Notes under the pieces: generated by a model
Told to the model about the DNA's origin: nothing
The model's input: only the letters and a program-made list of their open reading frames with translations
Databases searched by the model: none
Part shown: positions 1 through 19,362 of the stretch, piece after piece
Position numbering within the stretch: the first letter of the stretch is position 1
Layout: every line of letters begins with the position of its first letter
DNA from: a virus
Taxonomy: Duplodnaviria > Heunggongvirae > Uroviricota > Caudoviricetes
Strand: one strand, 5' to 3'
Length of the DNA stretch: 19,362 nucleotides
IMG/VR virus record: IMGVR_UViG_2695420739_000013
Location: 1-19,362 of that record
Translations under genes and position numbers: made by a program

Positions 1-24
1 CTTGCAGTTGCCAGACCGCAAGGT

Positions 25-119
25 GTTTTAACAAATCAAAAGGGGTTTTAATAACTGGCTCAAAGCTGAAAGCTTTCCGGAACCCCCAGCCTAGCTGGGG
101 GTTTTCTGTGCACAAAAAA
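25..119. repeat. Left copy of a 95-bp perfect inverted repeat; partner at 19268-19362. Contains an 8-bp-stem palindrome (83-101) followed by TTTT, and the last codons plus a tandem TAATAA stop of a plus-strand ORF entering from the left edge.
   Basis: Seen in sequence: the reverse complement of 19268-19362 is identical to 25-119; the match breaks at position 120 (C versus a 7th A). Confidence 0.85.
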
Positions 120-6687: not shown

Positions 6688-6743
6688 AAACGGCGGCAGA
6701 GCAGTCACGGAGTAAAACTGATACCGCCAAACGTCACCAGAAA
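6688..6743 (-). ncRNA. dicF: DicF small RNA (ftsZ-repressing sRNA of the dicB operon)
   Basis: The minus-strand sequence UUUCUGGUGACGUUUGGCGGUAUCAGUUUUACUCCGUGACUGCUCUGCCGCCG followed by U-run matches the K-12 DicF sequence as I recall it, differing at about one position. Confidence 0.75.
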
Positions 6744-13240: not shown

Positions 13241-14614
13241 ATGAAAAGACTATATTATACCCATCATGATAGTCGAACCTTAAAACTTGCTATAGAAGGT
13301 GATGTTTCTGATAATGCGAATATTTTTACAGTAATTGTAGGTAAAAATGGCGTTGGAAAAAGCAGATTGTTATCTCAGATTGCTAAAGACTGTATTCAAG
13401 ATGTTCATTTCTTGAAAACTTTTAATCCATTATTTGACAGAGAAATAACACCAAAGTTAATTGCCGTATCTACCAGCCCATTCGATAAATTCCCTCCAGG
13501 GCGTAGGTCATTAAATCACCAAAGGAAAGAAAATAATTATCGCTATGTGGGTATGCGTGGAGAAGGCCCCTTCGGCGTATCAAATGCCGTATCCCTTTTA
13601 TCTTCAGCAGCGAGAGGTTGGCTAGAGAAACTTGCTTATTCAGAAAATCCTGCAAATTTACTCGATGTTTTTCATTCTATTGATTTTGAGCCCCATATAG
13701 AGTTTGTATTTAAACCAACTTACAACGGACCGGACACTCCTGACTATAACTTCATTGGTGTATATTCAGATGAGATATTAACGGAAGTTAAGGAGTTATA
13801 TTTAAAATACAATATAAAAATTGACAGGAAGAATATTGAGAGTCTCTTAAAGTTAAACTCCGAATCACGTCATGATATTTACGAAGCACTGGTTGAAATT
13901 AATCGATTTGAACCTGAACGTAGGGCTGTAACCTTGTCAGTCGATTTTACCAATGGTGAAACATTGGTTGGCTCGACTTATGCGAATAATTATTTTTCTA
14001 GATCAATTCTTAAACTTATGAACGCTGGCTTCATGAGATTGATGGATATGCGACTCATAAAAAAAAGCTATGGTCCCATGTCACTTAAACGTGCGAGCTC
14101 GGGAGAACAATGTTTATTAGTGATGTTGCTTGGAATTGCAGGGCATATAACTGATGGTTCTATAATATTAATTGATGAACCGGAAATAAGCTTGCATCCT
14201 CGATGGCAGGAAGAGTTTATCATTATGTTAACAAAAGCATTTTTAACTTACTCAGGTTGTCAATTCATAATTGCAACTCATTCACCACAAATAATATCCA
14301 ATTTGCCGAATAAAGGTTGTTATATAACATCTTTGTCGAAAAGTTATCTTTATAAAGCAAAATACTTTAGCAACCGGTCTGCAGACTATCAACTTGCGGA
14401 ACTATTTGATGCCCCTGGCATTATGAATGAATACATTGCCAGGTTAGCTTTCAATTTACTTTCAAAAGTTAAGACTGCTAAGTTAGTAACAGATGATAAT
14501 TGGCGTGAATTAAAACAACTCCAACTTCTCCTTGAAAACGTTAATAGTAATGACCCTATTAATGAACTCGTAAATTCCGTATCTCAGGTGTGTGAAATTT
14601 ATGCCAAAAATTAA
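13241..14614 (+). CDS. ABC-type (AAA_15/AAA_21-like) ATPase, Septu PtuA-like
   Basis: 457 aa. Walker A GKNGVGKS (residues 34-41), ABC-signature-like SSGEQ, Walker B IILIDEPE, D-loop SLHP, H-loop ATHSP. AT-rich. Its 3' end overlaps the following HNH gene. Confidence 0.85.
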   Translation: MKRLYYTHHDSRTLKLAIEGDVSDNANIFTVIVGKNGVGKSRLLSQIAKDCIQDVHFLKTFNPLFDREITPKLIAVSTSPFDKFPPGRRSLNHQRKENNYRYVGMRGEGPFGVSNAVSLLSSAARGWLEKLAYSENPANLLDVFHSIDFEPHIEFVFKPTYNGPDTPDYNFIGVYSDEILTEVKELYLKYNIKIDRKNIESLLKLNSESRHDIYEALVEINRFEPERRAVTLSVDFTNGETLVGSTYANNYFSRSILKLMNAGFMRLMDMRLIKKSYGPMSLKRASSGEQCLLVMLLGIAGHITDGSIILIDEPEISLHPRWQEEFIIMLTKAFLTYSGCQFIIATHSPQIISNLPNKGCYITSLSKSYLYKAKYFSNRSADYQLAELFDAPGIMNEYIARLAFNLLSKVKTAKLVTDDNWRELKQLQLLLENVNSNDPINELVNSVSQVCEIYAKN

Positions 14615-15236
14615 AAATCCAATTAGATTCAGCGCAGAGTCATTAGATATTATTGAGAAAAAATTGTCTTCTCCAGATTTTAAGCATACCAACTGGGGAG
14701 ATGATGATTTGCAAGTTCTCCGTGCAGAAATTAGAAATCATTACAGAGAAGAACAAAAGCTAGAATGTGTATATTGTCATGAGCCTATTGGGGTAAGAGC
14801 TGCACAAGCTGCTCCTATAGAGCATATTGTGCCAAAATCTCAATATCTATGTTTTATTTTTGAACCTAAGAATCTATGTGTAGTATGTCCTGACTGCAAT
14901 GAATTCAAAGGTAAAAATGAAGTGTTATTTGAACCCGTAATAAATGGGGGGCGGCGCAAAAACTATCCAACTGCATCTGCATCATTTCGCATCGTTCATC
15001 CACATATAGATGATTATGAGATGCATATTATAAAAGCAAATCGTGTTTATGTGGACAAAACACCTAAAGGGCACTATACCATTGGAATATGTAAACTAAA
15101 TAGATTTTTTCATTATTTTGGGATGTGTGATGAATTTGTTAATGATGCAAAAATTGCTGAGACAAATGAAAATTTTTTCAAAAAAGGTAGTATTACTACT
15201 AATGAATTATTGGATGATGACATTCATTTGATTTAA
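14601..15236 (+). CDS. HNH endonuclease, Septu PtuB-like
   Basis: ATG at 14601 (track ORF from GTG 14592) overlaps the ATPase gene by 14 bp. HNH-type motifs CVYCH...EHIVPKS...CVVCPDCN (two CxxC pairs flanking the catalytic His). Confidence 0.85.
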   Translation: MPKIKNPIRFSAESLDIIEKKLSSPDFKHTNWGDDDLQVLRAEIRNHYREEQKLECVYCHEPIGVRAAQAAPIEHIVPKSQYLCFIFEPKNLCVVCPDCNEFKGKNEVLFEPVINGGRRKNYPTASASFRIVHPHIDDYEMHIIKANRVYVDKTPKGHYTIGICKLNRFFHYFGMCDEFVNDAKIAETNENFFKKGSITTNELLDDDIHLI

Positions 15237-15549
15237 CTATGAATTATTATATTGTAAAGTAATCAGGTAAGATATGTTAGACAGTGAGACTATTGCCTTA
15301 CAGAATTCATTATTCTTATGGATCGCCTTTCTGACTGATTTCATATTGGCGGGGTAACGGGAGTTAAGTAGAATGGCTGCGGGTGCTTGAGGCTATCTGT
15401 CTCAGGCATGAACACCAAAGGCAGATAGAGAAAAGCCCCAGTTAACATTACGCGTCCTGCAAGACGCTTAACATTAATCTGAGGCCAATTTCATGCTAGA
15501 CACATGTAGGTTAGCCTCTTACGTGCCGGAAGGCAAGGAGAAGCAGGCT

Positions 15550-15705
15550 ATGAAGCAGCAAAAGGCGATGTTAATCGCCCTGATCGTCATCTGTTTAACC
15601 GTCATAGTGACGACACTGGTAACGAGGAAAGACCTCTGCGAGGTACGAATCCGAACCGGCCAGACGGAGGTCGCTGTCTTCACAGCTTACGAACCTGAGG
15701 AGTAA
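15550..15705 (+). CDS. hokD: Hok/Gef-family type I toxin (HokD/RelF-like), 51 aa
   Basis: MKQQKAMLIALIVICLTVIVTTLVTRKDLCEVRIRTGQTEVAVFTAYEPEE matches K-12 HokD as I recall it, differing at about one residue. The in-frame upstream extension from 15493 is what the ORF track reports as 70 aa. Confidence 0.85.
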   Translation: MKQQKAMLIALIVICLTVIVTTLVTRKDLCEVRIRTGQTEVAVFTAYEPEE

Positions 15706-15774
15706 GAGACCCGGCGAGGGAGAAATCCCTCGCCACCTCTGATGTGGCAGGCATCCTCAACGCACCCGCACTTA

Positions 15775-15805
15775 ACCCGCTTCGGCGGGTTTTTGTTTTT
15801 ATTTT
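15775..15805 (+). terminator. Rho-independent terminator downstream of hok
   Basis: Seen in sequence: CCCGC-ttcg-GCGGG followed by TTTTTGTTTTTATTTT. Confidence 0.5.
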
Positions 15806-15921
15806 CAACGCGTTTGAAGTTCTGGACGGCGCCGGAATAGAATCAAAAATACTTAAGTAGCGCGCAGGGATAAGAGGGATGGTCCCTTAAAGGGGAGAGC
15901 TAATTATCCGGAAGGATTCTG

Positions 15922-16173
15922 ATGATGAACATCGAAGAACTGCGTAAAATTTTTTGTGAAGATGGCCTCTATGCTGTGTGCGTTGAAAATGGAAATCTTG
16001 TTAGTCATTACCGCATTATGTGTTTGCGAAAGAATGGGGCTGCGTTAATTAATTTTGTGGATGGTCGAGTGACAGACGGATTTATCTTGCGCGAAGGTGA
16101 GTTTGTCACTTCATTACAGGCACTGAAAGAGATCGGAATAAAAGCAGGCTTTTCAGCTTTTGCAGAAGAATAA
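15922..16173 (+). CDS. Small prophage protein, Rem-like by position (Qin order hokD-rem-ydfU)
   Basis: 83-aa ORF with a GGAAGGA Shine-Dalgarno. The assignment rests on size and synteny, not on confident sequence recognition. Confidence 0.55.
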   Translation: MMNIEELRKIFCEDGLYAVCVENGNLVSHYRIMCLRKNGAALINFVDGRVTDGFILREGEFVTSLQALKEIGIKAGFSAFAEE

Positions 16174-18334: not shown

Positions 18335-18364
18335 TGACCATATACATTGTCCGGGGCTATATTC
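18335..18364 (+). promoter_or_regulatory. Candidate Q-dependent late promoter (pR'-like)
   Basis: TTGACC at 18335-18340, an 18-bp spacer, then TATATT at 18359-18364, immediately downstream of Q. Confidence 0.45.
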
Positions 18365-18425
18365 CTCGCGCGTCAGCAAAATCTGGCGTCGGGATTGGAA
18401 CCCCGGATATTCAACCGCGACAGAC

Positions 18426-18450
18426 ACACGCCGCGAGCGTGTTTTTTATT
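18426..18450 (+). terminator. tR'-like intrinsic terminator ending a short leader transcript (Q antitermination target)
   Basis: Seen in sequence: ACACGC-cgcga-GCGTGT then TTTTTTATT, about 60-80 nt downstream of the candidate late promoter. Confidence 0.5.
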
Positions 18451-18611
18451 GTCGTAAGCACACGCACATCTGAATAATGGTGGGGCGTATGGGGGAGCTG
18501 AAAGGCTCGCCGGTTGGTTGATCCGGTAGTTCCAACCCTGTACGTCTCACCACCCAATGATTGGAACCTGACGGTGGTGATAGTTAAATCCATCAACCAG
18601 AGGGCGTTATC

Positions 18612-19273: not shown

Positions 19274-19362
19274 GTGCACAGAAAACCCCCAGCTAGGCTG
19301 GGGGTTCCGGAAAGCTTTCAGCTTTGAGCCAGTTATTAAAACCCCTTTTGATTTGTTAAAAC
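19268..19362. repeat. Right copy of the 95-bp perfect inverted repeat (partner 25-119); truncated by the window end
   Basis: Seen in sequence: exact reverse complement of 25-119. The match reaches the final base of the window, so the repeat may be longer. Confidence 0.85.

Follow-up and report, generated by a model that had tools for sequence, protein, structure and literature searches.

A Qin-like lambdoid prophage with a probable complete hok/mok/sok type I toxin-antitoxin cassette of the hokD/hokW subgroup

Genes and features of the locus

The window (the whole 19,362-nt stretch of viral DNA that was analysed) encodes a Hok-type toxin with an overlapping mok frame, a structured mRNA leader, a hairpin and a terminator on the 3' side, and a candidate antisense Sok gene on the opposite strand, while a putative defence gene pair lies upstream on the same strand. 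The features are listed below in window coordinates.

13241 to 15236, plus strand: Septu pair, PtuA (13241-14614) and PtuB (14592-15236), overlapping reading frames; context, outside the cassette
15346 to 15374, plus strand: hok promoter TTGGCG-17-TAGAAT; promoter scan, 9 of 12 positions matched, -10 identical in Sp5
15381 to 15797, plus strand: full-length hok mRNA of about 417 nt, for which a closed, translationally inert form is predicted; minimum free energy (MFE) -169.7 kcal/mol, z -6.7
15381 to 15392, plus strand: tac element GGGUGCUUGAGG at the mRNA 5' end, pairing with 15755-15767 in the MFE fold; nearly invariant in 93 loci
15393 to 15428, plus strand: 5' leader hairpin directly 3' of tac; MFE fold
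15433 to 15439, plus strand: ucb or anti-Shine-Dalgarno box AAGCCCC, pairing with the GAGG region (mok Shine-Dalgarno) in the closed MFE fold
15428 to 15501, minus strand: predicted Sok antisense RNA of about 72-74 nt, with a single-stranded 5' tail, a long hairpin and the tail GGGGCUUUUCUCU; from the fold, ends inferred
15481 to 15484, plus strand: mok Shine-Dalgarno GAGG, 8 nt 5' of the mok ATG; by inspection, invariant in the alignment
15485 to 15506, no strand assigned: Sok 5'-tail and hok target segment of 22 nt covering the mok start region; hypervariable between near-identical loci
15493 to 15705, plus strand: mok reading frame, 70 codons, in frame with hok; list of open reading frames
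15508 to 15536, minus strand: Sok promoter, -35 TTGCCT (15536-15531), 17-nt spacer, -10 TAACCT (15513-15508); sequence match
15535 to 15540, plus strand: hok Shine-Dalgarno AAGGAG, overlapping the Sok -35 on the opposite strand; by inspection, invariant in the alignment
15550 to 15705, plus strand: hok toxin gene; open reading frame and Pfam, identical RefSeq copy annotated hokD
15688 to 15691, plus strand: UACG motif at Tyr47, where TadA is known to edit A to I in hokD (Tyr to Cys)
15713 to 15734, plus strand: GC-rich hairpin after the stop codon, 9 bp, GGCGAGGGA/TCCCTCGCC with GAAA loop; sequence and MFE fold
15755 to 15767, plus strand: fbi element CCUCAACGCACCC, complementary to tac; MFE fold, 12 bp with one bulge
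15774 to 15801, plus strand: intrinsic terminator of the hok mRNA; stem 15774-15791, 7 bp with 5 G-C pairs, then a T run

Toxin gene and mok frame

The hok reading frame runs on the plus strand from the ATG at 15550 to the TAA at 15703-15705 and encodes a HokD-type protein of 51 amino acids, which belongs to the Hok/Gef family of single-helix membrane toxins of about 50 residues with a TRK..LCE core. The encoded protein matches Pfam HOK_GEF (PF01848) with 82.7 bits (cut-off 22), and residues T25, R26, K27, L29, C30 and E31 are invariant in an alignment of the window Hok with HokD, HokW and the Hok of plasmid R1. It shares 50 of 51 residues (98%) with HokD of K-12, the sole difference being A22T, where threonine is also the residue of R1 Hok, and the original prediction of a hok-family type I toxin locus encoding a protein nearly identical to HokD/RelF is thus correct. 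Identity is 90% to HokW of phage Sp5 and 45% to the Hok of an R1-like plasmid.

The in-frame upstream extension from 15493, previously read as a mok-like leader frame, is confirmed as an open reading frame of 70 amino acids. This 57-nt in-frame arrangement is usual in the group, being present in 78 of 93 unique related loci and in MokW of Sp5, and cassette homologs in phages including VT2-Sakai are annotated MokW, HokD or gef. The putative mok frame overlaps hok and has its own Shine-Dalgarno sequence, and translation of hok is predicted to be coupled to that of mok. The heptamer TTACGAA around the Tyr47 codon, which includes the editing motif, is invariant across the 93 loci; the hokD mRNA of K-12 is reported to be edited at 6% (PMC12214031).

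Promoter, fold and 3' end of the hok mRNA

The hok mRNA is predicted to start near 15381, from position 1 of the Rfam model described below and the 5' end of R1 hok, GGCGCUUGAGG. For covariation, the fold of the window was projected on an alignment of 93 unique loci from E. coli prophages, Shigella, E. albertii, Kluyvera, Erwinia, Sp5 and an R1-like plasmid. Over the whole mRNA fold 92.9% of cells are paired, compared with 35-42% when partners are slid by 1-3 columns, and 38 pairs show double-sided changes, compared with 20.8 ± 2.9 in shuffles; the structure was derived from the window itself, which favours the percent-paired figure, while the double-change counts are less affected.

The helix between tac and fbi (helix 1) is 99.1% paired in the 93 loci and includes one compensated pair, G-C to A-U, in 5 sequences; this predicted closure of the 5' end on the 3' end would be equivalent to the tac-fbi lock of the R1 model. 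The leader hairpin that follows tac (helix 2) is 96.3% paired and has two compensated pairs, e.g. A-U to G-C or U-A. The AGCCCC of ucb is kept in all 93 loci, the R1-like one included, and the first 8 nt of tac are, by inspection, complementary to ucb AAGCCCC (15433-15439) with one bulged U, which refolding as in the R1 model would need. The role of ucb in sequestering the mok Shine-Dalgarno sequence is that of the R1 model (PMC9841398).

A strong hairpin had been noted right after the stop codon and is present, with 9 bp at 15713-15734 in place of the 8 bp reaching to 15737 that had been described; the terminator noted with it was also found by the terminator scan. The hairpin (helix 20) has 97.5% of cells paired in the 93 loci and 2 compensated pairs. 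By analogy with R1, where mutations in the last stem-loop of the truncated hok mRNA lead to loss of function (PMC9841398), it is predicted to be the stem protecting the 3' end of the mRNA once this has been processed to its active form. When the mRNA trimmed at its 3' end (15381-15738) was folded, the MFE structure kept the leader closed and gave no tac-ucb refolding, so that refolding is taken from the biochemistry of R1; a kinetic pathway is beyond what thermodynamic folding can decide.

Rfam family RF01794 and the leader

The Rfam search that had been proposed for the Sok family gave a full-length match to RF01794 (sok) at 15381-15555 on the plus strand, where model positions 1-157 are all matched with 117 bits (threshold 59). 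This match spans the leader from the hok mRNA 5' end (GGGUGCUUGAGG) to the hok AUG, and its orientation is hok-sense in every locus tested (window, 15381-15555; the R1-like locus L004, 232-403; locus L144, 3036-3210), the Sp5 locus being among those tested, while the truncated hokD of K-12 gives no match to RF01794. The match was therefore rejected as the antisense RNA itself: RF01794 describes the hok leader and not Sok, the strand it reports is the reverse of the one that encodes Sok, and that strand should not be taken for the antitoxin strand. The match in the window proves that the leader is intact, not that Sok is made. The leader of the window, with tac, ucb and the Sok target, is structured, as the full RF01794 match and the covarying helices demonstrate.

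Candidate antisense Sok gene

As RF01794 describes the hok-sense leader, Sok was sought directly on the minus strand. No convincing minus-strand promoter had been found by eye, and a generic sigma-70 scan of 15200-15950, with a threshold of at least 4/6 matches per hexamer, likewise found no minus-strand promoter in the leader. The promoter was located instead by homology to the validated sokW promoter of Sp5, and TTGCCT-N17-TAACCT is present at 15536-15508; the generic scan misses it because TAACCT matches only 3/6 consensus positions and falls below the threshold. The motif occurs once in the window, with 0.01 occurrences expected by chance. Both hexamers and the 8 nt after the -10 are identical to sokW of Sp5, with one spacer position differing. 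The TTGCCT/TAACCT hexamers are found in 79 of 143 related loci, the remainder having variants of the TTGACC/TAATCT type.

The predicted Sok RNA would start near 15501 and end with the hairpin and U-tail near 15428. An 84-nt minus-strand stretch, in which the long hairpin is followed by GGGGCUUUUCUCU, folds with -30.6 kcal/mol (z -4.3), and the Sok hairpin (helix 5 on the plus strand, its complement being a leader hairpin) is 96.9% paired with 5 compensated pairs. CATTAATCTGAGGCCAATTTCATGCTAGAC is a plus-strand sequence suited to detecting the predicted RNA. A cis-antisense Sok had been expected opposite the leader, and the minus strand does carry such a candidate, with its own putative promoter and terminator opposite the mok initiation region.

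Comparison with Sp5, R1 and K-12

The hokW-sokW locus of Sakai prophage 5 (Sp5, VT2-Sakai) was studied by Takada et al. 2021 (PMC8621323), who detected sokW RNA on northern blots and found that a promoter-less (-10) sokW mutant lost antitoxin activity, which sokW supplied in trans restored. The mutation changes TAGGTTA to CCGGCTC (primers YO-421/422), TAGGTTA being the complement of TAACCT, and the probe YO-597 is CCTTGCCTTTCGGCACGTAAGAGGCTAACC (PMC8621323); from the primers and the probe together, the sokW promoter is read as TTGCCT-17-TAACCT. HokW is toxic and located in the inner membrane, and sokW is complementary to the hokW 5' UTR over 71 nt (PMC8621323). After mitomycin C sokW is lost, HokW is produced in a RecA-dependent manner before the endolysin, and deletion of hokW-sokW halves the number of phages released (PMC8621323).

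Over the cassette, Sp5 and the window share 92% nucleotide identity, and they are the same in tac, ucb, the Sok promoter hexamers, the hok Shine-Dalgarno sequence, fbi, the 70-codon in-frame mok and the location in a lambdoid prophage. The two differ by 7 substitutions in about 17 nt of the Sok 5'-tail and target segment, and their Sok RNAs therefore probably do not cross-react. HokW differs from the window Hok in four C-terminal residues and at A22T, while the terminator and both flanking gene sets of Sp5 are different, with neither rem nor Septu.

The hok/sok (parB) locus of R1 has the same order as the window, namely tac, ucb, mok Shine-Dalgarno and ATG, hok, 3' hairpin and fbi, where R1 is represented by the close R1-like IncFII locus (L004) and R1 primer sequences (PMC1635323). 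In both, the antisense promoter lies in the region of mok and the hok Shine-Dalgarno, and both match RF01794. The Sok promoter of R1 is TTGCGC-17-TATCCT, unlike the TTGCCT-17-TAACCT of the window, and with a Sok hairpin shorter by about 16-19 nt the R1 RNA has 64 nt, compared with about 72 nt in the window. R1 hok/sok lies on a plasmid, where its role is post-segregational killing.

K-12 hokD (relF, Qin prophage) is 99% identical to the window in the 3' UTR, fbi and terminator and has the downstream neighbours rem and ydfU in common with it. Homology to K-12 begins only at window position 15536, where the 3' end of relE abuts the hok Shine-Dalgarno; in K-12, relE stands in place of the hok promoter, tac, ucb, the start of mok and all of Sok. 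In the window, 155 nt of leader missing from K-12 are retained, and this copy is not a remnant of the K-12 kind; it is the intact, ancestor-like form of the K-12 hokD locus and not a decayed one. The loss in K-12 agrees with the published view that its hok loci other than hokB are inactivated (PMC12214031).

A megablast search of 5426 complete E. coli genomes finds at least 80% of the region in 3926, where the gene is annotated hokD. Damaged copies occur alongside intact ones: in L091 (E. coli CP178302.1) tac is destroyed (ATGACTGCATGTGG), while L134 (also E. coli CP178302.1) and L141 (E. coli CP178306.1) are cut at the same point as K-12 hokD.

Genomic context

The genes upstream of the cassette are identified as a type I Septu defence system, consisting of adjacent genes for a PtuA ATPase and a PtuB HNH nuclease (PADLOC, 550 and 278 bits, respectively; Pfam, AAA_21 and HNH). 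Septu (PtuA/PtuB) is defined as a two-gene system. The terminator scan found no terminator between ptuB and hok, and read-through transcripts with extended 5' ends are therefore possible.

An identical copy of the cassette lies in a Qin-like lambdoid prophage of strain FORC 064, in the gene order exonuclease, dicB/DicF, cI- and cro-like regulators, ydaT, replication genes, DUF5677, AAA ATPase, HNH, hokD, rem and DUF968. The 1.5 kb upstream of loci of the hokD/W type fall into 44 unrelated clusters among 94 loci, with the Septu pair in only 5 (the window, the FORC 064 copy and three viral contigs), while the 800 nt downstream form a single cluster in 62 of 92 loci. Other cargo occupies the same place elsewhere, relBE in K-12 and unrelated small ORFs in Sp5 and a Rac-type phage. 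As the upstream side is variable and the rem/ydfU side conserved, hok/sok belongs to the phage backbone and forms the right edge of a cargo hotspot.

Where homology between the hok loci of different prophages begins varies from locus to locus over 15330-15385, within or just 5' of the hok promoter, and cargo exchange therefore seems to break repeatedly at the hok -35 region; the hok -35 itself differs between loci.

Several prophage RNAs are recognized elsewhere in the window. Two inverted copies of the STnc490 family of Hfq-binding sRNAs, at 1-103 (minus strand) and 19284-19362 (plus strand), are both cut by the window ends. Further prophage regulatory RNAs at 6691-6742 (minus strand) and 18357-18557 (plus strand) reach Rfam gathering scores: DicF with 72.5 bits, isrK with 75.6 bits, the C4 antisense RNA with 71.8 bits and a1/b1, the target of C4, with 49.3 bits. 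They suggest a P1/P7-type antirepressor immunity module near the right end.

Interpretation of the locus

Most probably the region, which lies in a Qin-like lambdoid prophage, is a canonical and complete type I toxin-antitoxin cassette, hok/mok/sok, of the subgroup formed by prophage hokD and hokW; this reading is given a probability of about 0.9 with the proposed mechanism included. All the sequence elements were found and are conserved, with covariation in the helices.

In the proposed mechanism, the weak promoter at 15346-15374 would give the hok mRNA of about 417 nt, which pairing of 5' tac with 3' fbi would lock in a closed form, with the ucb box holding the mok ribosome-binding site. Slow 3' trimming to the hairpin at 15713-15734 would remove fbi, upon which the leader would refold and expose the mok start and the Sok target. 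A constitutive, short and unstable Sok, made on the minus strand from TTGCCT-17-TAACCT (about 15501 to 15428), would pair with the exposed leader, blocking translation of mok and thereby the coupled translation of hok, and the duplex would be marked for RNase III. Once Sok synthesis stops, through prophage induction, loss of the element or shut-off of host transcription by an infecting phage, Sok would decay first and Hok would be made, insert in the inner membrane and depolarise the cell. For Sok transcription, 3' processing, refolding, toxicity and physiological role, this scheme follows R1 and Sp5.

Whether the locus is regulated or is a derepressed or decayed copy had been left open in the original prediction, which named a clear Sok-family match with an intact promoter as the mark of an ordinary regulated locus. 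The leader is complete, unlike that of K-12 hokD cut at 15536, and together with the full RF01794 match and the sokW-like promoter it makes this most probably an ordinary regulated locus. A decayed or derepressed copy, in which the toxin gene survives while antisense control or the signals for toxin expression are defective, has its model in the K-12 hokD remnant, the K-12 loci except hokB being reported as inactivated by IS elements or rearrangement (PMC12214031), and it would suit the weak consensus match of the Sok -10 and the damage seen in relatives (L091, L134 and L141). Such decay is nevertheless highly improbable for the window copy, as it keeps all elements from the hok promoter through the terminator, its Rfam match covers the whole model and its Sok promoter matches one that is functionally validated, while a derepressed intact hok would be lethal: from a chromosomal R1 hok without the Sok promoter, only loss-of-function mutants were recovered (PMC9841398). 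A functional tie to the Septu pair, with the cassette stabilising the defence island as an addiction module or serving as its abortive-infection effector, had also been suggested from adjacency. The cassette does lie on the strand of ptuB, 110-145 bp 3' of that gene, and no terminator is predicted in the gap; R1 hok/sok partially excludes T4, and transcription shut-off is plausible as a common trigger. The suggestion is very unlikely all the same, as the upstream cargo changes from locus to locus and seldom is Septu, with relBE or unrelated small ORFs in the same place, while the downstream side is common to most loci; in a genome-wide survey, hok is near defence systems in 12% of cases compared with 9.4% on random placement and is not enriched there (bioRxiv 10.1101/2025.08.07.668861). 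The adjacency to Septu looks incidental.

For the complete cassette favoured here, the closest experimental precedent for a role comes from hokW-sokW, which assists lysis and the release of phages when the prophage is induced. That the main role of the window cassette is of this phage-side kind, with Sok disappearing on induction and Hok speeding lysis and release, is compatible with the preferred reading and is held tentatively, at somewhat less than even odds. It draws on the direct Sp5 data (loss of sokW, RecA-dependent HokW and halved release on deletion; PMC8621323), on the 92% identity of two loci that both lie in lambdoid prophages, and on the enrichment of hok in prophages, 23% compared with 5% (bioRxiv 10.1101/2025.08.07.668861). 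Against it, the prophage around the identical FORC 064 copy contains many pseudogenes and has been entered by IS66, and in a cryptic element only stabilisation or exclusion would be possible. Prophage stabilisation and partial exclusion of other phages are possible roles.

Hypervariable Sok-recognition segment

The segment 15485-15506 has a nucleotide diversity of 0.295 compared with 0.015 at the third codon positions of hok (about 20 times), while the adjacent segment with the Sok promoter and hok Shine-Dalgarno sequence has 0.012; these values are for 65 close loci that are otherwise 92-100% identical. The same 65 loci carry 14 discrete alleles of the segment, and the nine commonest differ pairwise at 1-11 of the 22 positions, mostly at 5-11. 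The window and Sp5 have different Sok-tail alleles, and CCATATCTATGCTC is another. Where one genome has several copies, the alleles are all different in Shigella flexneri (3 of 3) and in E. coli ECMA0423 (2 of 2), although these are two genomes only and, at these allele frequencies, random pairs would differ in about 93% of cases, which leaves the comparison without power.

This variability looks like selection for distinct Sok-hok specificities. It is possible, if still doubtful, that the segment is under diversifying or frequency-dependent selection and that its discrete alleles are recombining specificity types. No description of hypervariability in the Sok-recognition segment was found in the searched literature.

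Significance

The system is already known and very common, and the window holds its intact form. What is of practical use concerns annotation; apart from this the locus itself adds nothing new. Annotation pipelines name the gene hokD after the truncated K-12 remnant and leave Sok unannotated, and a regulated cassette that is probably lethal if derepressed can therefore be mistaken for a relic or a component of a defence island. A dedicated study at the population level might be worthwhile for the hypervariable recognition segment alone. If the proposed selection is real, prophage hok/sok cassettes would form orthogonal 'immunity types', by which cross-repression between the several copies in an E. 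coli genome would be prevented or, alternatively, a resident prophage would neutralise only incoming phages of the same type.
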